From Candidatus Limnocylindrales bacterium (GTDB taxonomy: Bacteria > Chloroflexota > Limnocylindria > Limnocylindrales > CSP1-4), in the NCBI GenBank assembly GCA_036558545.1, contig DATBFJ010000027.1, positions 946-64,945 of the forward strand: a DNA stretch of 64,000 nt. The letters are read 5' to 3'. Below the pieces are notes generated by a model, which saw nothing but the letters and a program-made list of their open reading frames with translations, searched no databases and had not been told where the DNA came from. Every line of letters begins with the position of its first letter. Position 1 is the stretch's first letter. Shown piece by piece: positions 8,654 through 58,810 of this stretch. Made by a program: the position numbers and the translations under genes.

Positions 8654-9162
8654 GCGGTCTCGAACAGCAGCCAGTGGTCTGGAGGAATGTGCGGCTTGTC
8701 CGGCACCGGCCGCCACTCCTCGCGCCACGCGGCACCGACCATGTCCGAAGCGACGCGCTTCCAGAACTCAGGAGCGCCGGGGTTGTCGTCCTGGAACGCG
8801 ATCTCCCACGCACCGGGATAACGGTCGATGAGCACGCGCGCGACGAACTCGCCCACGCCGCGACGGCGCACGGCGCGCACCACGAAGAACTCTCCGATGG
8901 TGCGCTTGCCACCCTCCCAGTTCGTGCCGACGAAGGCGAATCCTGCTGGCGCACCGTCATACGTGATCAGGAAGCCCGGCCAATTGACGGCATCGTCACG
9001 AAACCACTGAAGATGGCCCAGCTTGAAAAGGCCGTGCTCGTTGGGCATCGAACCACGCGACTGCGACAGGTCGTGGACGTACAGCTGCCACAGCCGATCA
9101 ATGACGGGCGCGTCATCGTCCGTCAGCTCGCGCAGGCCAACCGTGGCGGCTGTGGCCTCCAT
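8650..9162 (-). CDS. GNAT family N-acetyltransferase
   Basis: FVVRAVRRRGVGEFVARVLI is acetyl-CoA motif A (R/Q-x-x-G-x-G/A). The start is taken at ATG 9162, which overlaps the polX stop (ATGA). Confidence 0.75.
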   Translation of the reverse strand: MEATAATVGLRELTDDDAPVIDRLWQLYVHDLSQSRGSMPNEHGLFKLGHLQWFRDDAVNWPGFLITYDGAPAGFAFVGTNWEGGKRTIGEFFVVRAVRRRGVGEFVARVLIDRYPGAWEIAFQDDNPGAPEFWKRVASDMVGAAWREEWRPVPDKPHIPPDHWLLFETA

Positions 9163-11081: not shown

Positions 11082-11107
11082 CTACCCGCAGCGTAAAGGT
11101 CGCCCGT

Positions 11108-12457
11108 ATGATCCGCCCAATGGAGGAACGACAGCGGCCGCTCGACCTGGCAATCCTCGGGGCGGGATACGTGGGCCTCGTCACGGCCGCCTGCCTTGCG
11201 AAGCTTGGTTTCAACGTCCGCTGCATCGACCGAGACACGAAGCGCATCGAAGGACTGCAAAGGGGCGTGATGCCGTTCTTCGAGCCCGGCCTCGAGGATG
11301 CCGTCCACGACGGGGCGTCGAGCGGGCGCCTGCGCTTCTCCAGCGAAGCCTCATTCAGCCATTGGGCGGACGCAGTCTTCCTGTGCATTGGCACGCTCGA
11401 CGAGCGGGGCAACTGGAGTGCTCAGGACGTTGAGCGCGCACTGGCCGGCGTTGTCGCCGACAGCGAGGCACCCAGGACGATCATCGTGCGCAGCACGTTG
11501 ATGCCGACCGAAACGGCGCGGATGGCGCGTATCGCGGCAGAGGTCGATGCATCCGTCGAGATCGCGATCAATCCGGAGTTCACCCGCCAGGGAAATGCTG
11601 TTGGCGACTTCCTGCGACCCGACCGGGTTGTTGTCGGGCTGACGAAGCCAGAATCCGAGTCGAGAGCACTGCCTCTGTTGCAGCGCGTCTACATGAACGT
11701 GCGCGCACCCATCCTCGTAACCGACGCGGCTTCGGCGGAGCTGATCAAGACCGGCTCGAACGTATTCCTGGGCCTGAAGGCTGGCTTCGCCAATGAGCTC
11801 GCCCGCCTCGCCGCCGCCACCGGTGCAGACGTCGCCACGGTCGTGGACGGAATTGGCCTGGACACTCGCATCGGACGTACCTATCTGACACCGGGCCCTG
11901 GCTTCGGCGGCTCGTGTCTGCCGTCCCAGACGCGGTCTCTGCCGGATGTTTCGGCCGCCCAGGGCGTCGACACGCCGATCATCGACTCAGTCGCGAGGTC
12001 CAATGCCCAGCAGGCGCAATGGATAGCGGCCCAGGTCGAGCGGGAGGTTGGAACTCTGCGGGGAAAGCAGATCGCCGTTTTCGGACTCGCGTTCAAGGCG
12101 GGCACGGATGACGTCCGTGAGTCTCCCGCGCTCTCCCTCGCGAGGGCGCTGGCAGCGAAGGGCGCCCAGCTGGCCGGTCACGATCCGCTGGCTGAAGCGG
12201 CCGCGCAAGCGGTGCTCGCGCGCGAAGGCGTGGCGATCCGGCTCGGCGAAAAGGACATTGACGCTGCGGCGGGAGCCGACGCGATCGTCATAGCAACCGA
12301 ATGGCCCGAGTACGCGAATCTCGATTGGACTTCGCTTGCCGCGGCAATGCCGGGCCGCGCTGTTGTCGACGCCCGGCGTGTGGTCGATCAGGAGGCTGCG
12401 GCGGACGCCGGCTTCAAGGTGGTCGTCCTCGGTCGCGTCATCGCACAGCCTGACTGA
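11108..12457 (+). CDS. ugd: UDP-glucose 6-dehydrogenase
   Basis: Rossmann motif LAILGAGYVGLVTAACLA, catalytic-Cys block GFGGSCLPSQ, C-terminal UDP-binding domain (FGLAFKAGTDDVRESPA). The start is moved to ATG 11108; the ORF-track N-terminus is an Arg-rich extension overlapping polX. Confidence 0.9.
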   Translation: MIRPMEERQRPLDLAILGAGYVGLVTAACLAKLGFNVRCIDRDTKRIEGLQRGVMPFFEPGLEDAVHDGASSGRLRFSSEASFSHWADAVFLCIGTLDERGNWSAQDVERALAGVVADSEAPRTIIVRSTLMPTETARMARIAAEVDASVEIAINPEFTRQGNAVGDFLRPDRVVVGLTKPESESRALPLLQRVYMNVRAPILVTDAASAELIKTGSNVFLGLKAGFANELARLAAATGADVATVVDGIGLDTRIGRTYLTPGPGFGGSCLPSQTRSLPDVSAAQGVDTPIIDSVARSNAQQAQWIAAQVEREVGTLRGKQIAVFGLAFKAGTDDVRESPALSLARALAAKGAQLAGHDPLAEAAAQAVLAREGVAIRLGEKDIDAAAGADAIVIATEWPEYANLDWTSLAAAMPGRAVVDARRVVDQEAAADAGFKVVVLGRVIAQPD

Positions 12458-41934: not shown

Positions 41935-42684
41935 CTACATCATAACGAGGCCGCCGTCGACGGCGAGAACCTGTCCGGTGATGTACGCGGCTTCATCGGA
42001 GGCCAGAAAGGCGACCGCGTAGGCAACCTCCTCGGTCGTGCCGAAGCGGCCGAGGGGCGTCCTGTCGGTGATCTGTGACTTGAGGTCGTCATTGAGGTCC
42101 TGAGTCAGCTCGGTCAGGACGAAGCCCGGCGCGACTGCATTGACCGTGATGCCTCGTGATGCGAGCTCCCGTGCCGCTGCCTTGGTAAGGCCGATCAGGC
42201 CGGCCTTGGCGGACGAATAGTTGGCCTGGCCCATCTGGCCGGCCTGACCGCTCACGCTGGTGATCTGGATGATCCGGCCGGACTTGGCCCGGAGCATCGG
42301 ACGGGTAACGGCCTTGAGCGTGTAGAACGCGCCGAAGAGGTTCGTCTCGAGCACGTCGCGCCAGGCGTCCACCGACATGCGCATGATCAGATCATCTCGC
42401 GTGACGCCGGCGTTATTGACGAGGATGTCGACCTTGCCGAACGCATCGAGGGCAGCCTTGATCAGCGCCTCGGCCGCCTCCGGATCGGTCACGTTGGCCT
42501 GGACCGCGAGCGCCTTGCGGTCGAGCGCCTCGATCTCCGTGACCGTCTGCCTGGCGGCGCCCGCGTTGCTGACGTACGAAAAACAGATATCGGAACCCTG
42601 CTCGGCCAGGCGCAGCGCGATGGCCCTGCCGATGCCCCGCGACCCGCCAGTGACGACCGCGGCTTTTCCGGTCAGATCAATCAT
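41935..42684 (-). CDS. fabG: 3-oxoacyl-[ACP] reductase
   Basis: TGGSRGIGRAIA cofactor motif, NNAG, catalytic YSSAKAG, and full-length similarity to the FabG pattern. Confidence 0.9.
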   Translation of the reverse strand: MIDLTGKAAVVTGGSRGIGRAIALRLAEQGSDICFSYVSNAGAARQTVTEIEALDRKALAVQANVTDPEAAEALIKAALDAFGKVDILVNNAGVTRDDLIMRMSVDAWRDVLETNLFGAFYTLKAVTRPMLRAKSGRIIQITSVSGQAGQMGQANYSSAKAGLIGLTKAAARELASRGITVNAVAPGFVLTELTQDLNDDLKSQITDRTPLGRFGTTEEVAYAVAFLASDEAAYITGQVLAVDGGLVMM

Positions 42685-43090
42685 GGCGTGAGTCTAAGGT
42701 CGAGATCAGCCTTCGTTCGACGATGGTTATCGGCGTCGTGCCTCTGATGGAGTTCGGGATCTCGGCAATTCGATCGACCTCGTCAAGCAAAGCGCCCAGG
42801 TCATCTTGAGTCGCGTCTCCGGTAATCGAGACGGTCACCGAGATCGGCGAAGACGGCTCGCCGCGTCCCGGAAAATCGCCGTCAACTGATAGAGCGACGT
42901 CGCGCAGGCTGATTCCACGAGATGAAGCTTCGCGGAAGAGATCGTTGGAGATACATGCCGCGATAGAGAGGTAAAGCAGCTGGCCGCCGTTGAAGCCCCG
43001 GCCTCCGCCGGCTGGAGCGGGTCGGTCGGCTACGAGCGTGAAGTGCCCTCCCCATCCAAGCGCCGTCGGTCCACCATCGACCGAGTGCAT
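42677..43090 (-). CDS. OsmC/Ohr family peroxiredoxin-like protein
   Basis: GFNGGQLLYLSIAACISNDL plus the length fit the OsmC family. Start is ATG 43090, or alternatively TTG 43114 overlapping the fabH stop (TTGA). The ORF-track N-terminus is an Arg-rich extension. Confidence 0.6.
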   Translation of the reverse strand: MHSVDGGPTALGWGGHFTLVADRPAPAGGGRGFNGGQLLYLSIAACISNDLFREASSRGISLRDVALSVDGDFPGRGEPSSPISVTVSITGDATQDDLGALLDEVDRIAEIPNSIRGTTPITIVERRLISTLDSRHD

Positions 43091-43110
43091 CTCGACACGG
43101 AAGGTGTCGC

Positions 43111-44295
43111 TCAAGCGAGCACCTCGTGGTGCGCGTGCTCGGGCTCGCCGGGCACTACGTCGTCGAGGGGCACGGGCGGTCCGGCGGCCTCCAGGACTTG
43201 GCGCAGCCGGTCGGGAATCGGATCGACCGAGCCCCATTCGACCGGCTCGCGCACGCTCGCGACCGGCTCAACTGCCAGCGCTCGCTGTCCGCACGTCGGA
43301 TCGGCCGTCCACTCGAGCGCAATTCCACCTGAGGTCAGGCCGGCGCCAAACGCGACCAGCACAATCTTGTCGCCGATCTTGATACGGCCAGAGTCGACTG
43401 CCTCCGCAAGGGCGATGCCCACCGAGGCTGCCGACGTGTTCCCGTAGCGATCGACATTGACGAACATCTTGTCCATAGGCAGGCCAAGCCCCTTTGCGAC
43501 CGATTCGATGATGCGGACGTTGGCCTGGTGAGGAATGAACAGGTCGATATCGTCGGGCTTCCAACCGGCCCGTTCGATCGCGGTCAGGGCCGTCGTGGCC
43601 ATCGTCTTGGTGGCGAACCGGTAAGTCTCTTTTCCTTCCATGCGGACGTAGTGCTCGCCGCGGGCGAGCGTGCCGCCCGTCACGGGCGACCGCGAGCCGC
43701 CGGACGGCAGCCAGATCATGTATGCGCCATCCGGGTCGGTCGTCATCTCGATGCCCTGCATGCCGCCGCCCTCTTCCTCGGAGGCGGACAGCACCACGGC
43801 TCCGGCACCGTCTCCGAACAGGATGCACGTCGAGCGATCGGAGAAATCGAGGAAGCGCGTTAGCGTCTCAGCGCCGATTACCAGCGCGTTCTTGTAGATC
43901 CCGGAGCGGATATAGGCGTCGGCCACCGAGTAGGCGTAGACAAAGCCCGAGCAGGCGGCCATTACGTCCATTGCCGCTGCTCGCGTGTTGCCGATCGCCT
44001 CCTTCACCAGCGCCCCGGTCGAAGGCATCCAGTAGTCGGGCGTGAGCGTCGCGACGAGGATCACGTCGATGTCGTCGGGTTGGAGCCCGGCGACGGCGAT
44101 CGCCCGCTTGCCGGCGATCGCCGACAAGGTGGCCGTGGTTTCGTGCGCTGCGGCGACGCGGCGTTCGCGGATGCCTGTGCGCTGGACGATCCACTCGTCC
44201 GATGTGTCGACGACGCGTTCCAGGTCCGCATTGGTCAGCCGGCGCTCCGGTGCGTACATCCCCCAGCCGGTGACGCGAACGCTCTTTGGAGTCAT
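43111..44295 (-). CDS. fabH: 3-oxoacyl-[ACP] synthase III with ~65-aa C-terminal extension
   Basis: Catalytic triad contexts MAACSGF (Cys), IPHQAN (His) and YGNTSAAS (Asn). The core ends at ..GGIALEW (aa 329). An additional 65 aa follow (43111-43308). Confidence 0.9.
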   Translation of the reverse strand: MTPKSVRVTGWGMYAPERRLTNADLERVVDTSDEWIVQRTGIRERRVAAAHETTATLSAIAGKRAIAVAGLQPDDIDVILVATLTPDYWMPSTGALVKEAIGNTRAAAMDVMAACSGFVYAYSVADAYIRSGIYKNALVIGAETLTRFLDFSDRSTCILFGDGAGAVVLSASEEEGGGMQGIEMTTDPDGAYMIWLPSGGSRSPVTGGTLARGEHYVRMEGKETYRFATKTMATTALTAIERAGWKPDDIDLFIPHQANVRIIESVAKGLGLPMDKMFVNVDRYGNTSAASVGIALAEAVDSGRIKIGDKIVLVAFGAGLTSGGIALEWTADPTCGQRALAVEPVASVREPVEWGSVDPIPDRLRQVLEAAGPPVPLDDVVPGEPEHAHHEVLA

Positions 44296-44771
44296 GCCTC
44301 GACCTCGATCAGCGGCTGCTTTGCCTTCACCAGTGCACCATCCTCGGGATAGATACGCGTAACGCGACCGGCGCGGTCGCTCTTGATCTCGTTAAACAGC
44401 TTCATTGCCTCGATCAGGCCGATCACCTGTCCGATCGTGATCGTGCCTCCAACCGTCACGTAGGGCTGCGCACCGGGAGAGGGAGACGAGTAGAAAAGTC
44501 CCGTCAACGGCGCCATGACGGCATTGAGCGGAGGCCCATCCGATGCGGCCGACGCGGGTGCCGCTCCGGCTGCCGCTCCGTCCGTTGCAGCCGCCGCCGT
44601 CGGAGCGGCGGCGGTTTGTGGCGCGATGGCATTCGGCTTGCGCAGCACGAGGCCGGTGGCTCCCGCCTCGACCTCTATCTCGGACAGGCCGGAGTCGTTG
44701 AGCAGGCGCTCGAGGCGGTCGATCAGGTCGACCAGCTCCGGGGCATCCTGGCCGGGGTTGGAGTCGCTCAC
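44292..44771 (-). CDS. accB: Biotin carboxyl carrier protein (canonical, biotinylatable)
   Basis: Ala/Pro-rich linker, then VIGLIEAMKLFNEIKSDRAGRV with the EAMK biotinylation motif. Confidence 0.9.
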   Translation of the reverse strand: MSDSNPGQDAPELVDLIDRLERLLNDSGLSEIEVEAGATGLVLRKPNAIAPQTAAAPTAAAATDGAAAGAAPASAASDGPPLNAVMAPLTGLFYSSPSPGAQPYVTVGGTITIGQVIGLIEAMKLFNEIKSDRAGRVTRIYPEDGALVKAKQPLIEVEA

Positions 44772-46042
44772 GCCTCGTCCCAGCGTCTGATGAGCAGTGC
44801 GCTGTTCTGGCCCCCGAAACCGAACGCGTTGACCAGGGCCACACGCATGTCACGCGAGCGCGACTTGAGCGGCGTGCAATCAAGGTCGCCCATGGCCGGT
44901 GACGGATCGACCAGGTTCAACGTCGGAGGCACACAGCCGTCGCGGAGTGCCGAGATTGCCGCTACCGCGCCAATGCCGCCCGCCGCGCCGAGGGTGTGAC
45001 CGATCGCGCCCTTCGTGGCCGTGATCGAGATGTTGGGCGCGTGCGCCCCGAAGATCGTCTTGAACGCCTCCAGCTCGGCCGGATCGCCTTCCGGTGTCGA
45101 TGTCGCGTGCGCGCTGACGTGGTCAACGTCGTGTGGCTGCATGCCGGCCTTGGCGAGGGCCATGCGGGCGGCGCGGACTCCGCCCGCGCCGCCCGGCGCC
45201 GGCAGCGTGATGTGATTGGCGTCAGCCGTGGCGCCGTAGCCGCACAACTCGGCCAAGATGGGGACGCCGCGCCGGCGCGCGTGGCTCAACTCCTCGAGTA
45301 CGAGCACGCCGGCGCCCTCGGCGATGACGAACCCGTCGCGGCCCTCATCGAACGGCCGGCTCGCGCCCGGTGGATCGTCGTTGCGCGTCGACAGCGCTCG
45401 CATCGCGGCGAAGGCACCCACCAGCGGCTCGAATACGGGCGCCTCCGATCCGCCCGCGACCATCACGTCGGCGTCGCCGCGCATGATCGTCTCGGCCGCC
45501 TCGCCGATCGCGTGACCGGCCGTGGCACATGCACTGACGGTGGCCCAGTTGGGACCGCGGGCGCCGAAGCTGATCGCAGTCTGGCCGCTGGCCAGGTTGG
45601 CGATGGCCATCGGGATGAAGAACGGCGAAAGCCGGTCCGGTCCGCGCGTGGCGTTGATGGTTATCTGCTCGACGAGCGTGCCCGATCCGCCCAGGCCGCT
45701 GCCGATGATGGTGCCCGTCCGATCCGCGAGATCTCCTTCGAGGCGCTCAGGCAGGCCAGCCTGGTCCATTGCCTCGCGTGCGGCGACAAGCGCGAACTGC
45801 GTGTAGCGATCGGTGCGCCTCATCTCCTTGCGATCGAGCACATTGGAGGGATCGAAATCCTTGACCTCGCCGGCAATCTTGCTCGTGACCCGCTCCGGGT
45901 CCCAGGCCGCGATCGTTGCGACGCCCGAATCGCCGGCGACAAGGTGCCGCCAGAAAGCGGGCGCGTTGTTGCCCAAGGGGGTGACGGCGCCCATTCCGGT
46001 GATGACCACACGGCGCCGCGGCGGCTGCACCGGCGACGTCAC
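44768..46042 (-). CDS. fabF: 3-oxoacyl-[ACP] synthase II
   Basis: VVITGMGAVTPLGN, active-site VSACATAGHAIG, HATSTPEGD, GHTLGAAG. GTG 46042 overlaps the upstream stop (GTGA). The ORF-track N-terminal 146 aa are an Arg-rich extension. Confidence 0.9.
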   Translation of the reverse strand: MTSPVQPPRRRVVITGMGAVTPLGNNAPAFWRHLVAGDSGVATIAAWDPERVTSKIAGEVKDFDPSNVLDRKEMRRTDRYTQFALVAAREAMDQAGLPERLEGDLADRTGTIIGSGLGGSGTLVEQITINATRGPDRLSPFFIPMAIANLASGQTAISFGARGPNWATVSACATAGHAIGEAAETIMRGDADVMVAGGSEAPVFEPLVGAFAAMRALSTRNDDPPGASRPFDEGRDGFVIAEGAGVLVLEELSHARRRGVPILAELCGYGATADANHITLPAPGGAGGVRAARMALAKAGMQPHDVDHVSAHATSTPEGDPAELEAFKTIFGAHAPNISITATKGAIGHTLGAAGGIGAVAAISALRDGCVPPTLNLVDPSPAMGDLDCTPLKSRSRDMRVALVNAFGFGGQNSALLIRRWDEA

Positions 46043-46836
46043 CTGATCAGCCTTCCCATCCGGATCGTCGCGGCGCGGTAGACATCGCCCGGCAGGCCGC
46101 GCGCGGAAACTTCCTCCGCCGCCGTTTCCGAGTCGTATCTGGACCTGAAGAGCTGGGCCTCGGGCCGGGCCGCGTCCATTGGTTCGTCGTCGTTGTCGCC
46201 CATGGCTGAGTCGGCCACCGACGCATCTGGAATGGTGAGCAGCGCCCATCCCGCGTTCGGATCGCCGTCGAACGAATAGCCGCACGAACCCGGATTGACG
46301 ATCAGCTTGCGGCCCAGCTCCCGCGTATCGGCGATATGGGTGTGGCCGCAGCAGATGACGCGCGCGTCGGTGCGGGTGACCCGCTCGACCGTCACCGTCG
46401 GATCGAGGTCCGTGCCCAGACCGGACGTGACCGATCCCGGCGACGCGTGGCACACGAGCACGAGCACGTCTCCAGACCACACGCGGCGCTCATTTGGCAG
46501 GCCGCGCAGCCAGTCGAGCTGCTCGTCGGACAGCTGTTCGTGGGCCCATTCGGCAGCATCGCGGTAGCTCGAGGGCACGTCCTCCATCCATGGAAAAGCA
46601 GCGCTGAAGTCGTAGTCGGCCACGGCAATATCCGTGTTTCCGGCGACGATCATGGCGCCGTCCGTCTCGAGAGATCGAAGACGATCGACCACTTCGCCCG
46701 GGCGAGGACCGTTGAACACGAGATCGCCGGTGATGGCGATCCGGTCGGGGCGATGACGCTTGATGTCGGCCAGGGCCGCGTCGAGCGCACCGATGTTGCC
46801 GTGGATGTCGCCCAGGACGGCCAGACGCATGACCAT
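46039..46836 (-). CDS. Metallophosphoesterase (YfcE/MJ0936-like)
   Basis: LAVLGDIHGN, ITGDLVFNGP, VAGNTD and CGHTH are the calcineurin-like phosphoesterase motifs. Confidence 0.8.
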   Translation of the reverse strand: MVMRLAVLGDIHGNIGALDAALADIKRHRPDRIAITGDLVFNGPRPGEVVDRLRSLETDGAMIVAGNTDIAVADYDFSAAFPWMEDVPSSYRDAAEWAHEQLSDEQLDWLRGLPNERRVWSGDVLVLVCHASPGSVTSGLGTDLDPTVTVERVTRTDARVICCGHTHIADTRELGRKLIVNPGSCGYSFDGDPNAGWALLTIPDASVADSAMGDNDDEPMDAARPEAQLFRSRYDSETAAEEVSARGLPGDVYRAATIRMGRLIR

Positions 46837-47342
46837 CAGCGAAGCACGCCTTCGGTGGGGATGATGAACGAGATCGTCGCCTCACAGCATGTCTCGCCGT
46901 CGACGCTGGCGACGGCCTTGCCACGGCCGAAGCGCTTGCCCAGCTTGTCCATTGTCACTTCGAGGCTCAGACGATCACCGGGTTGCACCACGCGCTTGAA
47001 ACGGCATTCGTCGATGCCGGCGAACAGGCCGATGCGATCGCCAAAGCCCTCCTGCTGGGCCACGTAGACGGCCATCGTCTGGGCCAGCGCCTCGACCTGG
47101 AACACACCCGGCATGACGGGCAACCCAGGAAAGTGGCCCTGGAAATACCACTCGGTAGCCGTGATGGCCTTCTCGCCCCGTATGTAGCCGCGCACCGGGT
47201 CGTAATCGACGATTCGGTCGACCAGGAGCATGGGCCAGCGATGCGGGATGAGCTTCTGGATCTCGGCAGTTGTCAGCAAAACGCCGTCACGCTTGAGAGG
47301 GTTGTCGTTTGCAGCCGGCGGGGCGGCGGTCGCGTCGGTCAA
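46836..47342 (-). CDS. fabZ: 3-hydroxyacyl-[ACP] dehydratase
   Basis: LIPHRWPMLLVDRIV and FQGHFPGLPVMPGV are hallmark FabZ motifs. The start is inferred at TTG 47342 with GGAGAG at 47347-47352. The ORF-track start overlaps accC. Confidence 0.85.
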   Translation of the reverse strand: MTDATAAPPAANDNPLKRDGVLLTTAEIQKLIPHRWPMLLVDRIVDYDPVRGYIRGEKAITATEWYFQGHFPGLPVMPGVFQVEALAQTMAVYVAQQEGFGDRIGLFAGIDECRFKRVVQPGDRLSLEVTMDKLGKRFGRGKAVASVDGETCCEATISFIIPTEGVLR

Positions 47343-47359
47343 GAGTCTCTCCGTAAACC

Positions 47360-48727
47360 TCAGGCTGCGGCGGCCGCGTTGAGGAACGCGGCGCTCCCCA
47401 CCCGGTCGAGCAGATTGGTCGTGAATTGTCCGTTCAGGAAAGTTTCGTGTTCGAGCAGCGCCCGATGGAGCGGCAGATTGGTGACGAGCCCGTCGAGGAC
47501 GATCTCGTCGAGCGCATCGCGCGATCGGGCGATCGCCTCGTCCCTGTCGCTGCCCCACACGACGAGCTTGCCGAGCATCGAATCGTAGTAGGGCGGCACT
47601 TCATAGCCGCTGTACAGGTGCGAGTCGATGCGAACGCCGGGGCCGCCGGGGGGCAGGTATGTCTCGACGATGCCGGCCTGCGGCCGGAAATCGTGGGCCG
47701 TGTCCTCGGCGTTGATGCGGAACTCGATGGCGTGACCGCGCAGCGCCACGGCATCCTGACCGTAGCCCAACGGCTCACCAGAGGCGATGCGGATCTGCTC
47801 CGTCACCAGGTCCATGCCCGACAGCATCTCCGTGATCGGATGCTCGACCTGGATGCGGCAGTTGATCTCGATGAAATAGAAGTTGCCCTGACGGTCGAGC
47901 AGGAACTCGAGCGTGCCCAGGTTCTCGTAGCCGGCGGCCACGACCGCGCTGATCGCCGCTTCGCACAGCGCCTCGCGCTGTGCCTCGGTCATTGCCGGAG
48001 AGCGAGCCTCCTCGAGCACCTTCTGGTGGCGACGCTGGACCGAACAGTCGCGTTCGCCGACGTGAACGCCGTTGCCGTAGCGATCGACGATGACCTGGAC
48101 CTCGACATGACGGTTGTCCTCGAGCCACTTCTCGATGTACAGCGAATCGTCGTGGAACGCGGCCATGGCCTCTGAGCGGCAGATGGTCATGGCCTGCTGC
48201 AGCTCCCTCGGCGAGCGGGCCCTGCGCATGCCCTTCCCACCGCCACCGGCGCTGGGCTTGATCAGAACCGGGTAGCCGATGCGATCCGCCTCGGCGAGCG
48301 CGTGCGCATCGTCGCGCAACATCGGCGAGCCTGGGATGGTGGGCAGGCCGTGCTTGCCCAGCAGGGTCCTCGTACCAGCCTTCGAAGCGAAGCGCTCGAG
48401 CACCTCGGGCGGCGGCCCGATGAACGTCAGGCCATGGGCACGGACCATCTCGGCGAACGTGTCGTCCTCGGAAAGAAAGCCGTATCCGGGGTGGACTGCG
48501 TCGCAGCCCGAGACGAGGGCGGCCGACAGCAGCGCGGACGCGGACAGGTACGAGCGACGCGATTCCGCGGGCCCGATGCACACTGCTTCGTCGGCCAGCT
48601 GCACTGCGCGCGAGTCCCGATCCGCCTCGCTGTACGCGACGACGGACGCGATGCCCATCTTTCGGCACGCCCGCTGGATGCGCAGCGCGATCTCGCCGCG
48701 ATTCGCGATCAGTATCTTGCTGAACAC
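47360..48727 (-). CDS. accC: Acetyl-CoA carboxylase, biotin carboxylase subunit
   Basis: KILIANRGEIALRI, ATP-grasp GGGGKGMR, EINCRIQVEHPITE. Confidence 0.95.
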   Translation of the reverse strand: MFSKILIANRGEIALRIQRACRKMGIASVVAYSEADRDSRAVQLADEAVCIGPAESRRSYLSASALLSAALVSGCDAVHPGYGFLSEDDTFAEMVRAHGLTFIGPPPEVLERFASKAGTRTLLGKHGLPTIPGSPMLRDDAHALAEADRIGYPVLIKPSAGGGGKGMRRARSPRELQQAMTICRSEAMAAFHDDSLYIEKWLEDNRHVEVQVIVDRYGNGVHVGERDCSVQRRHQKVLEEARSPAMTEAQREALCEAAISAVVAAGYENLGTLEFLLDRQGNFYFIEINCRIQVEHPITEMLSGMDLVTEQIRIASGEPLGYGQDAVALRGHAIEFRINAEDTAHDFRPQAGIVETYLPPGGPGVRIDSHLYSGYEVPPYYDSMLGKLVVWGSDRDEAIARSRDALDEIVLDGLVTNLPLHRALLEHETFLNGQFTTNLLDRVGSAAFLNAAAAA

Positions 48728-48730
48728 GTG

Positions 48731-49228
48731 CTAAGCCTCGGCTTCCACGCGGGCAATCGGCTGGCCGAACTCCACTGCCTGGCCCGACTCGACCTCAAAC
48801 GCCTTCAGCGCGCCGTCGACCGGGCTGACGACATCCTGACGCACGCCGAGCACGTCTACGTACCCGAGCAGGTCACCGCTGCGCAGTTGCGAGCCGACTT
48901 CGACGCCGCTGCGCGGCGCGAAATAGCCGACTGCAGGCGAGGCCACGATGCCGCGCATGGCATCCCGCGGCGCAGCTGTCCCGGAGGCTCCGGAGGCCAT
49001 GACCGGGTGGGGCTGGCGCTGCGCGGCATGAGCACTCTCCGGGCCGTCGATAACACCCGCAACCCCCCTGCGCAGGCGAATCCGCCAACCGTGCTCGCGC
49101 ACTTCGAGCTCGCCGAGCTGACTGTTTGTCAGCCGTTCAATCAGCCCGGGTACGACCTCGTCCGCCAGGCGCGCGATGGTCGCCCGTGCTTCCGCTCCGT
49201 CCAGCAAATCGCTGTCGTCGCCCATCAA
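48731..49228 (-). CDS. BCCP-like biotinyl-domain protein lacking the biotinylation lysine
   Basis: Aligns to the BCCP C-terminal domain (VASPAVGYFAPRSG.EVGSQLRSGDLLGYVDVLGVRQDVVSPVDGALKAFEVESGQAVEFGQPIARVE), but the (E/V)AMK tetrapeptide is replaced by DVLG, so there is no Lys at the modification site. Confidence 0.8.
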   Translation of the reverse strand: MMGDDSDLLDGAEARATIARLADEVVPGLIERLTNSQLGELEVREHGWRIRLRRGVAGVIDGPESAHAAQRQPHPVMASGASGTAAPRDAMRGIVASPAVGYFAPRSGVEVGSQLRSGDLLGYVDVLGVRQDVVSPVDGALKAFEVESGQAVEFGQPIARVEAEA

Positions 49229-50235
49229 ATGTCCTCACGCAAGGGTGGCTGCTCGTCGCCGTCGGTCATCGAATTGGGCAATGCCGCTGCATTGCCGGCG
49301 ATCGCGACGCGGCCTCCTTCGAGCATGCGCCGAATACGATCGAACATGCCCGCTCGCTCGACCTTCGCCTCGCCGGTCTGGGTCGCCACGGCAAACTCGC
49401 CCATCTGCCGATAGCGCATGTAGCGCGCGTCGACGATCGCCCTGCGGTCACGCCCGGCGAGCGCGTCGAGGTGCGCGGTGATGCGCGCACGCAAACGGCG
49501 GGCGACCTCCTCGGGGTTTTCGTGGGCGCCGCCGGCGGGCTCGGGCACGACCTCGTCGATGACGCCCAGCGCCAGCTGCTCGGCTGCCGTAAGGCGCATG
49601 GCGACGGCCGCCTGCTGCGAATAGTCGGCACTGCGCCACAGGATGCTCGCGGCGCCCTCCGGGCTGATCACCGAGTAGATCGAGTTTTCGAGTGCCAGCA
49701 CGACGTCGCCAACGGCGAGTGCGAGTGCACCACCGCTGCCTCCCTCGCCGGTGATGATCGTGAGGATCGGTGTTCGCAGCTGGGTCATCGTCATGATCGA
49801 GCGCGCGATTGCCTCGGCCACGCCGCGCTCCTCCGATGCGGAACCGGGAAATGCTCCAGGTGTGTCGACGAAGGTCACGACTGGCAGCTGCAGACGCTCC
49901 GCCAGCCGGTACAGCCGGATCGCCTTGCGATATCCCTCTGGATGCGGCATGCCGAAATTGCGCCGGATGTTCTCCTCTGTCTCGGCGCCCTTCTGATGAC
50001 CGACGAACACGGCGCGACGGCCGTCAAAGCGACAGAAGCCACCGACCACGGCCGGATCGTCACGAAACAGACGGTCGCCGTGCAGCTCGACTACGTCGGT
50101 TGCCATTGCCGCTACGAGCTCGAGCGTGTGCGGCCGCTTGACGTTGCGCGCCATACGTACGCGATCCCAAACCGCGGCGCGCAGCTCCTCGGGATTGACC
50201 TGCTGAGTCTGATCCGGTGTCGCCACGTCAACCAT
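49225..50235 (-). CDS. accA: Acetyl-CoA carboxylase carboxyltransferase alpha subunit
   Basis: FVDTPGAFPGSASEERGVAEAIARS and ITGEGGSGGALA are conserved AccA blocks. Confidence 0.9.
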   Translation of the reverse strand: MVDVATPDQTQQVNPEELRAAVWDRVRMARNVKRPHTLELVAAMATDVVELHGDRLFRDDPAVVGGFCRFDGRRAVFVGHQKGAETEENIRRNFGMPHPEGYRKAIRLYRLAERLQLPVVTFVDTPGAFPGSASEERGVAEAIARSIMTMTQLRTPILTIITGEGGSGGALALAVGDVVLALENSIYSVISPEGAASILWRSADYSQQAAVAMRLTAAEQLALGVIDEVVPEPAGGAHENPEEVARRLRARITAHLDALAGRDRRAIVDARYMRYRQMGEFAVATQTGEAKVERAGMFDRIRRMLEGGRVAIAGNAAALPNSMTDGDEQPPLREDI

Positions 50236-51154
50236 GGACTGCGGGCTCCCGGCCCATCAGGTTGTCGAGGAGCGCCGGTGCACGAACGATCGGGCCCGTG
50301 CCGTTGCCGCTCGACTTGTCCGCCGCTGGTGCCTTCATGTAGCGCAACAGACCCTGGAGCGTCTCGCGCAGCTTGTCACGCGGCACGACCATGTCGACGA
50401 AGCCGTGATCGAACAGGAACTCGGCGCGCTGGAAGCCTTCGGGCAGCTCCTCCGCGATCGTCCCTGCCGCGACTCGCGCGCCGGCAAATCCGATCAGCGC
50501 CTTGGGCTCGGCGATGTTCACGTCACCGAGCGCTGAGAACGAGGCGAACACACCGCCGGTCGTCGGATCGGTCATCAGACTGATGTACGGCACGCCCGCC
50601 TCGGCCATGCGCCCCAGTGCGGCGCATGTCTTGGCCAGCTGCATCAGCGAGAGGGTACCTTCCTGCATGCGCGCGCCCCCCGACGCCGAGATGACGATCA
50701 GTGGCAGGCGCTCGGAAAGTGCGTACTCAGCGGCGCGCGTGACTTTCTCGCCAACAACGGTGCCCATCGAGCCGCCCATGAAGGCAAAGTCCATGGCGCA
50801 GATGGCAACGCGCGTGCCACCAATGGATGCCGTGCCCCATACCGCCGCGTCCCGGACGCCGGTCGAGTCACGCGCTGCGGCGAGCCGATCCGGGTAGGGC
50901 TTCTGGTCGACGAATGCGAGCACGTCGACCGATTCGAGACCGGCGTCCTGCTCCACGAAGCTGTCGCGATCGAGGAGCAGCGTGAGTCGGGCGTCGACGC
51001 GCAGTCTGAAATGGTGGCCACAGCGCGGGCATACGCGCAGGCCCTTGTCGAGCGTCTTGTTGTAGAGCATCTCCTGGCAGTCGGGACACTGCGTCCAGAG
51101 ATCCTTGGGGTATTGCTCATCGCGGCGGCCCGCAAACGGCAACTTGATCGGCAT
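50228..51154 (-). CDS. accD: Acetyl-CoA carboxylase carboxyltransferase beta subunit
   Basis: N-terminal zinc ribbon CPDCQ..(14)..CPRCGHH, then FMGGSMGTVVGEKV and SASGGARMQEG. Confidence 0.9.
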   Translation of the reverse strand: MPIKLPFAGRRDEQYPKDLWTQCPDCQEMLYNKTLDKGLRVCPRCGHHFRLRVDARLTLLLDRDSFVEQDAGLESVDVLAFVDQKPYPDRLAAARDSTGVRDAAVWGTASIGGTRVAICAMDFAFMGGSMGTVVGEKVTRAAEYALSERLPLIVISASGGARMQEGTLSLMQLAKTCAALGRMAEAGVPYISLMTDPTTGGVFASFSALGDVNIAEPKALIGFAGARVAAGTIAEELPEGFQRAEFLFDHGFVDMVVPRDKLRETLQGLLRYMKAPAADKSSGNGTGPIVRAPALLDNLMGREPAVHG

Positions 51155-51513
51155 CAGCCCTGCCTCCGCCGCCAGGCAAACATCGCCGCAGCACCGATCG
51201 ATACGCCCGACGCGATCGCGCCACCCATCAGCAGCCTGCGATCCAGCGCCACCATGGAGTCGCCGGGCGCGCCGCCTGCCGCGCGTAGCTGCTCGGCGAG
51301 CCGCTCCTCGAACAGGAACGACGGGTGAAAACGCGGCAGGCCGGTCTCGAGCAGCCGGATCACCTGGCGCACGTTGTGCTCTGGCGTCGAGGGAGCGCGG
51401 GAGAGCGTGATGGGGAGTCGAGCGTGGCCGTTGAGCAACGCGTCGATGTAAGCGTCGCTCTGGACCGCCTCGTCGTCCGCATCGAGGCGCAATGCCGGCT
51501 GGGCTGGCTCCAT
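51154..51513 (-). CDS. Putative tail-anchored anti-sigma factor / hypothetical membrane protein
   Basis: Immediately follows and overlaps (ATGA) the ECF sigma gene. Single C-terminal TM helix (GGAIASGVSIGAAAMFAW). No recognisable zinc-binding ZAS motif. Functional call rests on position only. Confidence 0.4.
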   Translation of the reverse strand: MEPAQPALRLDADDEAVQSDAYIDALLNGHARLPITLSRAPSTPEHNVRQVIRLLETGLPRFHPSFLFEERLAEQLRAAGGAPGDSMVALDRRLLMGGAIASGVSIGAAAMFAWRRRQG

Positions 51514-52142
51514 CAATTGGCCGCGCGCTTGCGCGGGAAGCGGACTCCCGACTTCTCTGCCCGGCTCATCTGACGCGCCACGGATTGCAGCGAGCGGTGG
51601 ATCAGGACGCGCGTGGCGCCCTCTGACCGGCCCAGGATCTCGCCGATCTCACGAGTCGACATCTCGTTCACGAAGCGCAGCACGAGCGCGCGTCGCCTGT
51701 CCGCGGGCAACCGTTCGATGAGCTCCCACGCGCGCGCCAGCTCGATGCGGTTGCTCGCCACGGCATGTGTGTCGTCGCCGGCCGGGTACTCGAGTGCCAG
51801 ATCGATCGGCGATGTCGGGTGGCGCCGAGCGTGGCGCTTCTCGTTCGACAGCGCGTTGCGAGCAATCTGGAAAAGCCATACACGGAAGCTGGAGTCGAGA
51901 CCTTCGGACTGCTCGTGAAAGTGGGGCAGCCCGGCCAGGGCACGCAGAAAGACGAGTGCAGTCACGTCCTCCGCCGCGTGCGGATCGCGGAGCTCGTAGA
52001 GCGCAAAGCTGTACACCTGGGCGACGTACTTCCGATAAAGCGCCTCGAAGGCGGCAGGATCACGTCGTGAACGCTCAACGGCGGAGCGGTCCACGTCGAG
52101 GCTATCCAGGGCCGCAACGCGGTCCTTCCCTCTCCTCAACAC
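51513..52142 (-). CDS. ECF-type RNA polymerase sigma-70 family factor
   Basis: Region 2 (FEALYRKYVAQVYSFALYELRDPHAAEDVTALVFLRA) and region 4 HTH (MSTREIGEILGRSEGATRVLIHRSLQ). Confidence 0.85.
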   Translation of the reverse strand: MLRRGKDRVAALDSLDVDRSAVERSRRDPAAFEALYRKYVAQVYSFALYELRDPHAAEDVTALVFLRALAGLPHFHEQSEGLDSSFRVWLFQIARNALSNEKRHARRHPTSPIDLALEYPAGDDTHAVASNRIELARAWELIERLPADRRRALVLRFVNEMSTREIGEILGRSEGATRVLIHRSLQSVARQMSRAEKSGVRFPRKRAAN

Positions 52143-52312
52143 CGGCCGAGTCTAGCCGTTACACGTTGATTACCAACATGCGCTCACGCGGCGCTGCCGC
52201 GGGCTGATCGCCAAGAGCGCGCGCCGGGAGCACTTCAAGCTGCGCCCGAACGACATCTTGTCGCCCTGGTCTGCGATGCGAGTCCGTGGATAGCGCGGGG
52301 CAGCGCGCTCGA

Positions 52313-53092
52313 CTAAATGACCCGGCAGCGAATGACTTCGCCTGAGTCGACAGCAACGACGCCGCCGAAGTCCGGTTGGACGAGCAGCGCACCTGACTCG
52401 GGATCGACGCCGACTCCTTTTCCGGTCACCGAGCTGTCTCCCGCATCGACAACCACGGTCCGGCCCGTGGTGCGCTGCGCAGACGACCAACCGCCGTTGT
52501 CGAATCTCCCGCTCAGCAACGCCTCGTAGCGCGGTTCGAGCCGGTCCAGAAAGCCCTGCAGCAGCAGCTGGTTGTCGATCGGCCGCTTGCCCGATAGCTC
52601 GTGGAGGCTGTTCATCGTCGCCGCGATGCCCCACGGGAAGTCGGTCATCTTCCACTCCGTGTTGACCCCGATTCCCACGATTGCCGACTCGACGCGCTCG
52701 CCCGCTGCGACCGACTCGCCAAGAACGCCGGCCACCTTGCGAATGCCGCCGTCATGTGCGTCGGCGACGATGTCGTTCGGCCACTTCAGCCAAAGAGTTC
52801 CTTCCTTGAGACCCGCGACATCCTCGGCGGCATCGCGCATGGCCAGCGCCACGACGGCGGCCAGGCGCCAGGCATGACCAGCGGCAAGGTAGGCGGGCCG
52901 CAGGCCGACCGACAGAAGCAGAGCCGCGCCGGGCGGTGCCACCCACTCGCGGCCGTTGCGTCCGCGACCGGAGGTCTGATAGTCGGCCACGGCCACGCAC
53001 ACTTCTGGAACACCCTCAGCGAGCCATTCACGGACAACATGCTGGGTGCTGTCGACGGCCCTGAAGCGTTCTATTCGGTTGGGAAAAGTCAT
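52313..53092 (-). CDS. birA: Biotin--[acetyl-CoA-carboxylase] ligase (class I, no HTH)
   Basis: QTSGRGRNGREWVAPPG matches the GRGRxGRxW biotin-binding loop, followed by LKWPNDI. There is no N-terminal DNA-binding domain. Confidence 0.85.
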   Translation of the reverse strand: MTFPNRIERFRAVDSTQHVVREWLAEGVPEVCVAVADYQTSGRGRNGREWVAPPGAALLLSVGLRPAYLAAGHAWRLAAVVALAMRDAAEDVAGLKEGTLWLKWPNDIVADAHDGGIRKVAGVLGESVAAGERVESAIVGIGVNTEWKMTDFPWGIAATMNSLHELSGKRPIDNQLLLQGFLDRLEPRYEALLSGRFDNGGWSSAQRTTGRTVVVDAGDSSVTGKGVGVDPESGALLVQPDFGGVVAVDSGEVIRCRVI

Positions 53093-55285: not shown

Positions 55286-58200
55286 ATGAGCGGACCCGCC
55301 GTCTGCCCCACCTGCGGCGCGCCTGTGGGGGTTGGCGCCCGCTTCTGCGCGTCGTGCGGCAGCCACCTTGGGCCGGAGCTGGCCGAGGAACGCAAGCTCG
55401 CCACGATCGTCTTCGCCGACGTCACCGGTTCGACCGACCTGGGCGATCAGCTCGATCCCGAGCGCGTCCGGGCACTCCTCCAGGAGTATTTCGCGGCCAT
55501 GGCGGCGATCGTCACGACCTGGGGCGGCACGATCGAGAAGTACATCGGCGATGCGATCCTGGCCGTTTGGGGCGTTCCAGCGGCTCGCGAGGACGACGCA
55601 ATCCGTGCTCTTCACGCGGTGCGCGAGATGATCGACGAGATCGACCGCCTCAACGGATCGTTCAAGGTTCGCCACGGCGTGCAACTGCGCGTCCGCATCG
55701 GCGTGAACACAGGCGAGGTTTTGGCACCAGTTGGTGCTCGACCGGGCGGGCAATTCCTCGTCTCGGGCGATGCCGTGAACGTCGCTTCGCGCCTCGAGCA
55801 GGCCGCCGAACCCGGAACGGCGATCGTCGGCGAGCGGACGTGGGCCAGCGCACGGCACGCCTTCGACTTTGGCGAGCCCTGGTCGCTGCAGCTCAAAGGC
55901 AAGCGCGAGCCGGTTATCGCGCGCGTGCTCCGCGAGCCATTGCACAGCGACGTCCAGCGAACGCCGTTTCAGGGCGCGATGGTCGGCCGGGATCGCGAGC
56001 TCGCCACTGTCATCGGCCTGCTCGACGAGGCGATCGAAGGCGCCAGCCCGCGCCTGGTGCTGATCGCTGGTCCAGCGGGCATCGGCAAGAGCCGGCTGCT
56101 GCGTGAAACGATCAGCGAGGCTGGAGAACGGTTCGATCGGCTGCTGGTGCTCCGTGGTCGCTGCCTGGCGGCCGGCCACGGCATCACCTTCTGGGCGCTC
56201 GGCGAGATCCTGCGCGCGGCCTGTTCCATCTCGCTCGACGAGCCAGCTGAAAGCGCGGTTGCCAAGCTAGAGCAATCTGTCGCCGGGCCGCTGGCATCGA
56301 TCGGCTTGGGCATCGACGACATCGCGCGCACCGTGGCCGCACTGGCCACGAGCGCGAACATCACCCTGCCCGACAACCTGCTCGAAGGCCTCGATCCAGA
56401 GGTTGTCTTCGAAGAAATCTCGCGCTCGTGGCCACGGTTTCTGACCGGTCTCGCTCGATCCTGGCCGTTGGCGATCGTGCTCGAGGACATCCACTGGGCC
56501 GACGATCGGATGCTCACGCTCATCGAGATGCTCGCCGCGCGATCCCAGGGCCAGATCCTGATTGTGGCGACCGCGCGGCCGGAGTTCCTCGAAGCGCACC
56601 CGGGCTTTGGGACGGGCCAGGACATCTCCGTCGTCTCACTTCGGCCGTTGACCGGCGTCCAGAGCGAGCGCCTCATAGACGAGCTCATTGGCTCCGCCGG
56701 ACTGCCGTCCGGAATCGTCGACGAGATGCGCGCCAAGGCCGACGGCAACCCGTTCTTTCTCGAGGAGATGCTCCAGCGCTTCGTCGACGAGGGCGCGCTG
56801 GTCAGCGAAAACGGTGCATGGCATGCAACCGAGCGTGCTGCCACGGTCAAGCTCTCGGACAACGTCCACAGCCTGCTCGCGGCGCGCATCGACGCGCTTC
56901 CTGTGGCCGAAAAGCAGTTTCTGCAGGAAGCATCCGTGGTCGGTCGGATCTTCTGGCCCGGTGCGCTGAGTCGAGAGACCGCATTGTCGCCAGCCGCCGC
57001 TGGCGAGGTGCTGCACTCGCTCGAACGTCGGGGCCTGATTGCCGTGCGGCCCACCTCGACGATCGGTGACGAGCCCGAATACATGTTTCGACACATGCTC
57101 ATCCACGACGTCGCCTACGGCAGCGTTCCAAAGGCACGCCGAGCTCGGGCCCACGCGGATGTCGGGCGGTGGCTCGAGAGCCTCGCCGTTGACCGGCAGG
57201 ATGAGTACGAGGAGCTGATCGCCTATCACTACTCGGCCGCGATCACGGCCGAGGATGCCGACCTGGCGTGGTCCGATCGGCGCGACGAGCACGAGCAAGT
57301 GCGCCGCCGCGCGTTCGAGATGCTCGTCCGCGCCGGAGCCTCGGCGCGCCACCGATTCGCCACGGACAAGGCGCTGCAGCTCCACGGCGAAGCCCTGGCC
57401 ATCGCCAAGGGTACGGCCGAGCTCGCACTGATCCACGAGGAGCTCGGCGACGACCACGAAGCGCTGTACCGTGGCGACGACACGGTTGCGGCGTATCTGG
57501 CAGCGATCGAAGAGGCACGTCAGCTGTCGGATGCCGACGAGCGCATCCCGTCGCTCGTGGCCAAGGCTGCGCGAATGGCCATTCGGTGGGGCGCTTTCCG
57601 TGATGCGCCTCCGGTAGATGAGCTACAGGCACTCATCGCGGAGTGCCTGGCGCGGCCGGTGTCGGACGATGTCCGTGCGCCACTGCTCATCGCATCGGCG
57701 GGCCTGGCGCGCGGTCGCAACAACATCCCGATTGGCGCCGGTCGGACGCTGCTCAGCAAGGATGAGCTGCCTGACCTTGACGAGCGCATCGCCGACGTCG
57801 AGGAGGGCATGCGCATCGCCGAGCAGATCGGCGACCCATCTCTGCAGTACATGGCCTTTGCCTTGCTCTCGATCCTGTACCAGGCCAGCGAGCAGGAACA
57901 ACGCTACCGCGAGAAGTGCGAAGAGGCGCTGTCGCTGATCAACAAGCTGCCCTCGCGCCGTGAGCAGGTCGATCTCCTCGTATCGGTTGCCGGGGCGCGA
58001 GCGGACGCGGGTCGCTACGAAGACTCACTTCTCGCGGGCGAAGATGCGTTCGCCCGATCGACAGATCTCAGCCCACACGAACGGATGCATGCCGCCTGGG
58101 AGATCTATCGCGCCGCGGAGCCGCTGGGTCGTTGGGACCGGATGCTCGAGATCCTGCCGTGGTACGCCGAGGCCGCAGCGAGCGAGGGAGAGGTGACTTG

Positions 58201-58810
58201 TGCGGCGGTCCGTGCCGGCCCCGCCTTGGGCGCCACGGTCCTGGCGCGGCGCGGCGACAGCGATCGCGCCACACTGCTGGTTCCCGTCGCGGTCGACACA
58301 GCGCGCACGAGCACGTTCGGCGGCTCGGCAGTGTCAGCGCTGTACGCCAGCTCTTTGGGCGTGGCCGAGGCCAACCCGATTGTCGACGACGCGCTGTCCA
58401 GACCGAGCTCCGGCTTCATCGGCACCGGCATCGCACCGCTGTTGGATACGCTGGTCGCGCTCGAGCGCTACGACGATCTCGAGCAGTTCCTGCCATTCGC
58501 CGAGGGCCAGGCCTTTGCCAACGAGCTTGCCGCGCCATCGATCGCGCGGGCCAAGGCTGTGCTCGCGTTGCGCCGGGGCGAACGCGAGTCGGCGACAGAC
58601 ATGGTGAGAACCGCCCTCGCTCGATTTACGGAACTCTCGGCAGCGTTCCAGGTGGCCAGGACGAGCGAACTGCTTGCCGAGCTTGTCGACGAACCCGAAC
58701 GAACACGTTTGCTCCGGGCGGCGCTCGACGCCTACGAGGACCTGGGCGCCAACCCGTTTGCCGATCGGATCCGCGCGACGGTCCGCGCAAAAGTGGAGCT
58801 CAGCTCCTAG
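55286..58810 (+). CDS. Zinc-ribbon / class III adenylate-guanylate cyclase / AAA(STAND) ATPase / TPR-like multidomain protein
   Basis: N-terminal CPTCG..FCASCG. Cyclase core ATIVFADVTGSTDL, EKYIGDAILAVWG, RIGVNTGEV, GDAVNVASRLE. P-loop LIAGPAGIGKSRLL with Walker B VLEDIHWAD. A long helical-repeat C-terminus follows. No LuxR-type HTH at the end. Confidence 0.85.
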   Translation: MSGPAVCPTCGAPVGVGARFCASCGSHLGPELAEERKLATIVFADVTGSTDLGDQLDPERVRALLQEYFAAMAAIVTTWGGTIEKYIGDAILAVWGVPAAREDDAIRALHAVREMIDEIDRLNGSFKVRHGVQLRVRIGVNTGEVLAPVGARPGGQFLVSGDAVNVASRLEQAAEPGTAIVGERTWASARHAFDFGEPWSLQLKGKREPVIARVLREPLHSDVQRTPFQGAMVGRDRELATVIGLLDEAIEGASPRLVLIAGPAGIGKSRLLRETISEAGERFDRLLVLRGRCLAAGHGITFWALGEILRAACSISLDEPAESAVAKLEQSVAGPLASIGLGIDDIARTVAALATSANITLPDNLLEGLDPEVVFEEISRSWPRFLTGLARSWPLAIVLEDIHWADDRMLTLIEMLAARSQGQILIVATARPEFLEAHPGFGTGQDISVVSLRPLTGVQSERLIDELIGSAGLPSGIVDEMRAKADGNPFFLEEMLQRFVDEGALVSENGAWHATERAATVKLSDNVHSLLAARIDALPVAEKQFLQEASVVGRIFWPGALSRETALSPAAAGEVLHSLERRGLIAVRPTSTIGDEPEYMFRHMLIHDVAYGSVPKARRARAHADVGRWLESLAVDRQDEYEELIAYHYSAAITAEDADLAWSDRRDEHEQVRRRAFEMLVRAGASARHRFATDKALQLHGEALAIAKGTAELALIHEELGDDHEALYRGDDTVAAYLAAIEEARQLSDADERIPSLVAKAARMAIRWGAFRDAPPVDELQALIAECLARPVSDDVRAPLLIASAGLARGRNNIPIGAGRTLLSKDELPDLDERIADVEEGMRIAEQIGDPSLQYMAFALLSILYQASEQEQRYREKCEEALSLINKLPSRREQVDLLVSVAGARADAGRYEDSLLAGEDAFARSTDLSPHERMHAAWEIYRAAEPLGRWDRMLEILPWYAEAAASEGEVTCAAVRAGPALGATVLARRGDSDRATLLVPVAVDTARTSTFGGSAVSALYASSLGVAEANPIVDDALSRPSSGFIGTGIAPLLDTLVALERYDDLEQFLPFAEGQAFANELAAPSIARAKAVLALRRGERESATDMVRTALARFTELSAAFQVARTSELLAELVDEPERTRLLRAALDAYEDLGANPFADRIRATVRAKVELSS

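Follow-up and report, generated by a model that had tools for sequence, protein, structure and literature searches.

A conserved biotin carboxyl carrier protein homolog without the biotinyl lysine, encoded between accA and accC in Limnocylindria: a candidate non-catalytic subunit of acetyl-CoA carboxylase

Introduction

To our knowledge, the BADC proteins are found only in plants and algae. They are thought to bind both biotin carboxylase (BC) and BCCP, the biotin carboxyl carrier protein, and either to inhibit acetyl-CoA carboxylase (ACC) or to hold the BC-BCCP subcomplex together like a glue (PMC11926652, PMC13585458). Which of these roles applies is disputed: according to one model BADC is a competitive inhibitor, while according to the other it acts as a 'glue' or 'cap', stabilising BC-BCCP and furthering the assembly of the holoenzyme (PMC11926652, PMC13585458). 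Helix and beta-hairpin modules also tether BC-BCCP subunits in other carboxylases. An AccE helix has four hairpins wrapped around it in the LCC complex of mycobacteria (PMC13012033), and in BC1 of Chloroflexus a hairpin mediates tetramer formation (PMC11077971). The BCCPs of heteromeric ACCs are, in addition, marked by a 'thumb', mutation of which disrupts the function of E. coli BCCP (PMC11926652).

Here we describe a BCCP paralog of a soil Chloroflexota bacterium of the class Limnocylindria that carries neither the biotinyl lysine nor the thumb. Our literature search, outside which the key papers on BADC evolution lay, returned no paper on a bacterial lysine-less BCCP paralog, and its BADC-like matches were all from plants or algae.

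Results

The analysed window, i.e., the whole stretch of 64,000 nucleotides, contains an open reading frame (ORF) at 48731-49225/49228 on the minus strand, the product of which is here referred to as X. Its translation reads ...GIVASPAVGYFAPRSG...GYVDVLGVRQDVVSPVDG...SGQAVEFGQPIARVEAEA. A preliminary description of this DNA had placed the ORF between accA and accC, tightly coupled to accA by overlapping stop and start codons and only 3 nt away from accC, and had pointed out that a second biotinyl-domain protein, a canonical AccB with the motif IEAMKLFNEI, is encoded in the same cluster. Each of these assignments was reproduced, with accB located 4 kb downstream of X (Table 1). At the upstream junction, the accA stop codon TGA (49227-49225) is embedded in the sequence TTGATG and shared with two candidate start codons of X, TTG (49228) and ATG (49225). 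Given this overlap, a GAGG sequence approximately 10 nt upstream of the start, and the equal length of a 99% identical homolog (P0001, 164 amino acids as well), the ATG is likely to be the true start. At the downstream junction, the TAG stop codon of X ends at 48731 and accC begins with a GTG codon at 48727.

Table 1. Features of the acc-fab cluster and of X within the window
Feature	Position	Strand	Remarks
birA (class-I biotin protein ligase, 259 aa)	52313..53092	-	no DNA-binding domain (no HTH); heads the conserved cluster
ECF-type sigma factor	51513-52142	-	cluster member
Small ORF, 120 aa	51154-51516	-	no Pfam match
accD (carboxyltransferase beta, Zn ribbon)	50228..51154	-	TIGR00515, 370.8 bits; overlaps accA by 8 nt
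accA (carboxyltransferase alpha)	49225..50235	-	NF004344, 380 bits; stop overlaps start of X
X (lysine-less, thumb-less BCCP paralog)	48731..49228	-	165 aa from TTG 49228; likelier 164 aa from ATG 49225
X, N-terminal module (residues 6-53; long helix + beta-hairpin, GELEVREHGWRIRLR)	49070..49213	-	AlphaFold2 (AF2): helix 6-35, strands 40-45 and 48-53
X, linker (residues 54-92)	48953..49069	-	AF2 pLDDT <50 over 64-90; predicted disordered
X, C-terminal biotinyl-domain-like beta-barrel (residues 93-163)	48740..48952	-	AF2 pLDDT ~95; Foldseek; PF00364
X, short loop FAPRSGV at 'thumb' site	48902..48922	-	6 residues fewer than E. coli BCCP and AccB of the window
X, D-V-L-G at hairpin tip, replacing E-A-M-K (residues 125-128)	48845..48856	-	alignment; Gly128 at the biotinyl-lysine position
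accC (biotin carboxylase)	47360..48727	-	TIGR00514, 630.1 bits, above cut-off
fabZ	within ORF 46836-47558	-	Pfam domain from ~residue 104
Calcineurin-like metallophosphoesterase (MPE)	46039-46836	-	between fabZ and fabF
fabF	within ORF 44768-46480	-	Pfam domain from ~residue 156
accB (canonical BCCP, EAMK)	44292..44771	-	between fabF and fabH; IEAMKLFNEI; Lys124 at 44400-44402; thumb 44460-44492
fabH	43111-44295	-	fatty-acid synthesis cluster
OsmC-like gene	42677-43237	-	fatty-acid synthesis cluster
fabG	41935-42684	-	fatty-acid synthesis cluster

The gene order birA-sigma factor-accD-accA-X-accC-fabZ-MPE-fabF-accB-fabH-fabG was found in 80 related loci as far as their contigs reach and also in locus L081, which belongs to a subfamily of X with long linkers. 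X directly follows accA in every relative examined, and accC directly follows X in most of them. The nearest candidate start of X lies within approximately 4 nt of the accA stop codon in 75 of 79 loci, and in 69 of 78, the distance between the stop codon of X and accC lies between -19 and +7 nt. Locus L083 (positions 9001-11773), which encodes an X of a divergent 'EMLG' type, has fabD inserted between X and accC and lacks the MPE gene, but a 4-nt overlap of X with accA is kept there. Of the two junctions of X, that with accA is thus more persistent than that with accC, as it survives where fabD separates X from accC. In the cluster of the window itself, neither fabD nor acpP is present.

Upstream of accD, the unit comprising birA, the ECF-type sigma factor gene, and the 120-aa ORF (51154-53092) recurs in loci L001-L080, L081, and L083 wherever the contigs suffice, suggestive of a joint organisation of biotinylation, a dedicated sigma/anti-sigma pair, and ACC with fatty-acid synthesis. 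The MPE gene, which is not usually expected in a cluster for fatty-acid synthesis, is kept in most of the related loci. The AccA protein matches the Pfam ACCA profile only from profile position 53 and extends by a tail of about 57 residues past the C-terminal end of the domain; a partner, for instance X, could dock on this tail. In ten loci (L030, L046, L050, L055, L059, L069, L072, L073, L075, and L079), a stop-to-stop ORF scan yielded an AccD match and no separate AccA ORF, and accD and accA may be fused there in a single reading frame. The ORFs harboring fabF (570 aa) and fabZ (240 aa) include long stretches upstream of the respective Pfam domains; the true starts probably lie well downstream, and the apparent overlaps with the neighboring genes are probably artefacts. 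Elsewhere in the window, a 1174-aa ORF on the plus strand (55286-58810) was considered as a second biotin enzyme, a pyruvate carboxylase, and rejected; with its zinc ribbon, adenylate/guanylate cyclase domain, and AAA_16 ATPase domain, it corresponds to a large signalling protein.

The X protein displays the three-part layout of BCCPs: a helix-hairpin at the N-terminus is joined through a disordered linker to a C-terminal barrel of the biotinyl type (Table 1). The AlphaFold2 model had a mean pLDDT of 78.7, and a Foldseek comparison of its C-terminal domain with the BCCP structure 1BDO gave a TM-score of 0.81 and an rmsd of 1.7 Å at 36% identity. The Pfam Biotin_lipoyl profile (PF00364) matched with 26.7 bits, above its cut-off. 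These comparisons agree with the earlier claim that X can be aligned over the whole BCCP C-terminal domain. The BCCP profile TIGR00531 aligned with X from end to end (profile positions 8-155 of 156), with a score of 53.6 bits that falls far short of the curated NCBIfam equivalog cut-off of 115.2 bits; the genuine AccB of the window, at 105.7 bits, is also just under this cut-off. A profile of the X family, in turn, matched over its full length the E. coli BCCP of the BC-BCCP complex (4HR7_B) with an E value of 1.4e-13. In this comparison, the N-terminal module of X was aligned to residues 26-58 of E. coli BCCP (4HR7_B numbering) and, by its sequence, is homologous to the N-terminal region through which BCCP binds BC and oligomerises. 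The linker varies widely in length across the family, in which proteins reach up to ~330 aa. Taken together, the profile and structure comparisons identify X as a genuine BCCP homolog and more than a generic biotinyl/lipoyl-domain protein. The fold, the N-terminal region, and the linker are those of a BCCP, but the lysine, the thumb, and the curated score set X apart from functional members.

The D-V-L-G tetrapeptide of X falls in the alignment exactly on the E-A-M-K of both E. coli BCCP and the window's AccB. The preliminary description had already read D-V-L-G in place of E/V-A-M-K, with the reservation that an AMK lysine retained in relatives would refute the significance of the change. We found glycine at the lysine position in every alignable relative. 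It was present in all 120 best homologs (DVLG in 97, DMLG in 22, and EVLG in 1) and in all 81 proteins from the window and 80 GTDB species-representative genomes. An exhaustive HMMER scan of 1.84 billion proteins placed 109 clusters at or below an E value of 1e-30 and 782 at or below 1e-10. Of the representatives of the 150 best clusters (50% identity), all 146 that could be aligned carried the glycine, and no canonical BCCP bearing the lysine occurred among these 150 clusters. Profiles of two divergent subfamilies, the long-linker and the 'EMLG' type, retrieved 233 further members, all of which carried the same residue. The pattern [DEN]-x-L-G is shared by 100% of the alignable members of the family.

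We also considered biotinylation of X at another lysine and rejected it in silico. None of the alignment columns of the 81 proteins holds a conserved substitute, the top column reaching 43% Lys and lying outside the barrel, and 46 of the 81 proteins contain no lysine in the C-terminal domain at all. With glycine at the canonical position and no other conserved lysine, X should, on the strength of these alignments, be incapable of being biotinylated. The thumb is missing as well: the interval between the positions equivalent to Ec88 and Ec104 spans 11 residues in 80 of 81 X proteins versus 17 in E. coli BCCP and in 65 of 65 AccB proteins, and the HMM alignment of the X family to 4HR7_B contained the same gaps at the thumb.

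X is under purifying selection. Its pairwise dN/dS values against six relatives ranged from 0.10 to 0.30 and were similar to those of AccB (0.13 to 0.26), all of them approximate because of high dS. The most conserved part of X is the N-terminal helix-hairpin with 14 invariant positions; the invariant columns include I18, L21, P27, L29, R32, L33, G39, E40, E42, G47, W48, R49, R51, and R53, among them the motif G47-W48-R49-x-R51-x-R53. These positions are followed in conservation by the D-x-L-G-(V/I) hairpin and by the barrel face with SGQAVE(Y/F)GQ. We can exclude with near certainty that the lysine loss stems from faulty sequencing, a lesion confined to one strain, or the decay of a pseudogene, since the glycine recurs across independent metagenomes and 80 species genomes, dN/dS is 0.1-0.3, the frame is intact, and the motifs are invariant; we found no point in favor of error or decay. 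Collectively, the alignments indicate that the change of the lysine is ancient, conserved, and selected.

The composition of X proteins is peculiar, with 1.4% Lys, 10.8% Arg, and a median pI of ~6.1, compared with 3.7% Lys, 4.3% Arg, and a pI of ~4.7 in AccB of the same genomes. Selection against stray biotinylation or lipoylation could underlie the low lysine and high arginine contents, or else X could have a different binding partner.

All carriers of X are uncultured, and the named members of the family are metagenome-assembled genomes (MAGs) labelled Chloroflexota, Limnocylindria, or Limnocylindrales, with a few odd labels. The two profile searches with the divergent subfamilies did not reveal a wider phyletic spread, as they returned Chloroflexota/Limnocylindria labels with a single 'Patescibacteria group' exception. 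The odd NCBI labels ('Candidatus Sulfotelmatobacter', 'Thermomicrobiales', and 'Patescibacteria group' for L032, L075, and P0422) are attached to a typical cluster or protein and probably denote mis-binned or mislabelled MAG contigs. In databases, members of the family are named 'acetyl-CoA carboxylase biotin carboxyl carrier protein', 'biotin/lipoyl-containing protein', or 'hypothetical protein'. This poses an annotation problem, as thousands of entries are labelled as BCCP of ACC though predicted to be unable to carry biotin.

A canonical accB accompanies X wherever the contig reaches far enough; it was found in 64 of the 80 loci as well as in L081 and L083, and the co-resident AccB retained both EAMK and the thumb in all 65 cases where it was present. 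X and its co-resident AccB are only 29% identical, and E. coli BCCP obtains a higher score with the X-family HMM (64 bits) than the resident AccB does (28.5 bits). The notion that X is a recent duplicate of the resident accB is not supported by these values. In the classic accBC operon, accB lies directly upstream of accC. X holds this very slot, and it may thus descend from the original operon accB, the fabF-linked accB now being the carrier. This raises an evolutionary question, namely whether the accB in the classic position came to encode a non-catalytic subunit and a second accB assumed the task of the carrier.

Discussion

We propose that X is a BCCP-derived, non-catalytic subunit of ACC that binds AccC or BCCP assemblies through its N-terminal module, and we put the probability of this reading at roughly 0.6. 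A structural or regulatory role of a pseudo-BCCP in ACC had been suggested in the preliminary description, and as far as sequence reaches, the idea gains support: it fits the synteny with accA and accC, the purifying selection, the conserved BCCP N-terminal module, and the constant co-occurrence with AccB. Translational coupling would ensure that X is made together with AccA and AccC. The helix-hairpin of X may then dock on AccC and/or co-assemble with the equivalent module of AccB, since the same module in BCCP mediates binding of biotin carboxylase and oligomerisation; the resulting BC-BCCP subcomplex would include positions at which the carrier is 'dead'. With its invariant dead hairpin (VD-x-LG-V/I) and its SGQAVEYGQ face, X probably touches AccC in a BCCP-like manner without delivering any biotin. 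Overall, X could help ACC to assemble, stabilise it, or tune it, in the manner of plant BADC. We favor a role in scaffolding or tuning, integral to the enzyme, over that of a pure inhibitor, since the gene is constitutively coupled to those of the catalytic subunits and present in every related locus examined. Two observations nevertheless speak against X being such a subunit. In L083, X stays with accA, so that its partner could be the carboxyltransferase, and the loss of the thumb together with the 29% identity to AccB amounts to a strong divergence that might reflect a function outside ACC.

The main rival is that X is a dedicated competitive inhibitor, i.e., a decoy that occupies the BCCP sites of AccC and conditionally lowers malonyl-CoA synthesis. 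Such a role would be in line with a BCCP architecture that lacks the biotin site and co-exists with a functional AccB, and it has a precedent in the inhibitor model of plant BADC (PMC13585458; cited in PMC11926652), although plant in vitro work favors the 'glue' role (PMC11926652). We nevertheless regard an inhibitor as unlikely: in nearly all loci X is placed so that its translation could be coupled to that of accA and accC, an inhibitor made constitutively and in stoichiometric amounts would seem a waste unless its action is conditional, and X contains no regulator-like sensor domain. Acting outside catalysis, X could also control gene expression or biotinylation, either through autoregulation of the acc cluster by its N-terminal domain or as a non-consumable ligand of the adjacent BirA. 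Autoregulation by E. coli AccB through the BCCP N-terminal domain was reportedly described by James and Cronan in 2004, and in X no other part is as well conserved as this domain, the last strand of which is basic (GWR(V/I)RLRR). The family is also rich in arginine (10.8% versus 4.3% in AccB), and birA and a sigma factor gene belong to the same conserved cluster. However, the barrel and its surface residues are strongly conserved too, which a purely N-terminal function does not require, and an E. coli-type BirA/apo-BCCP switch is unlikely because the BirA encoded here has no DNA-binding domain. A regulatory role of this kind therefore appears improbable.

It is similarly hard to credit that X partners the carboxyltransferase (AccA/AccD) instead of AccC, for example as a tether between the carboxyltransferase and biotin carboxylase. 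What brings this arrangement to mind is the accA-X overlap, the most persistent junction, which survives in L083, along with the unusual C-terminal tail of ~57 aa in AccA and the tethering of BC-BCCP subunits to the carboxyltransferase core by actinobacterial AccE (PMC13012033). Yet the N-terminal module of X is homologous to the BC-binding part of BCCP, and the fused BC-BCCP of Chloroflexus needed biotinylation to bind the carboxyltransferase (PMC11077971), a modification that X is predicted to be unable to undergo.

Within the reading of X as a non-catalytic ACC subunit, a bolder version can be formulated, which we offer tentatively and with more doubt than confidence. Limnocylindria may have independently evolved an obligatory 'dead carrier', so that ACC would exist only as AccC-AccB-X, with the helix-hairpin of X nucleating the BC-BCCP oligomer and its hairpin gating the active site of BC. 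If true, this would represent convergent evolution, in bacteria, of the solution found in plant BADC and would provide a simple operon-encoded system to settle whether pseudo-carriers act as a glue or as a brake. A bacterial, operon-encoded analog constitutes an independent natural experiment that is genetically simple enough for reconstitution and cryo-EM. X was present in every related locus examined of this class, which is abundant in soil and freshwater.

Compared with canonical BCCP (E. coli; PDB 4HR7, 1BDO), X has the same helix-hairpin, Ala/Pro-rich linker, and barrel, but it is devoid of the biotinyl lysine and of the thumb, is poor in lysine and rich in arginine, and scores below the cut-off of TIGR00531. 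The actinobacterial epsilon subunits (AccE/PccE) resemble X, as interpreted here, in being small non-catalytic proteins; they tether BC-BCCP and the carboxyltransferase and promote assembly and activity (PMC13012033, PMC11926652). In contrast to X, however, AccE is helical, is not derived from BCCP, and comes from alpha/beta-type carboxylases with fused BC-BCCP, and there is no evident homology between the two.

The closest parallel is provided by the BADC proteins of plants and green algae (Arabidopsis BADC1-3 and Chlamydomonas Cre01.g037850). Like X, they are BCCP homologs without the biotinyl lysine, and like X, they occur alongside a genuine BCCP in organisms with a heteromeric ACC; as far as their contigs reach, the X loci encode accD, accA, accC, and an EAMK-type accB. 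X differs from them in being bacterial, in being seemingly limited, among the named records, to one class of Chloroflexota, and in being encoded in an operon between accA and accC. Furthermore, X keeps a hairpin of full length with a K-to-G replacement and has the thumb deleted, whereas BADCs reportedly have no biotinylated loop (bioRxiv 10.64898/2025.12.30.697075). The restricted distribution, with named members all being Chloroflexota/Limnocylindria MAGs, suggests that X probably arose independently of BADC, by convergence. X may thus be regarded as a bacterial counterpart of plant BADC by analogy, with no orthology implied.
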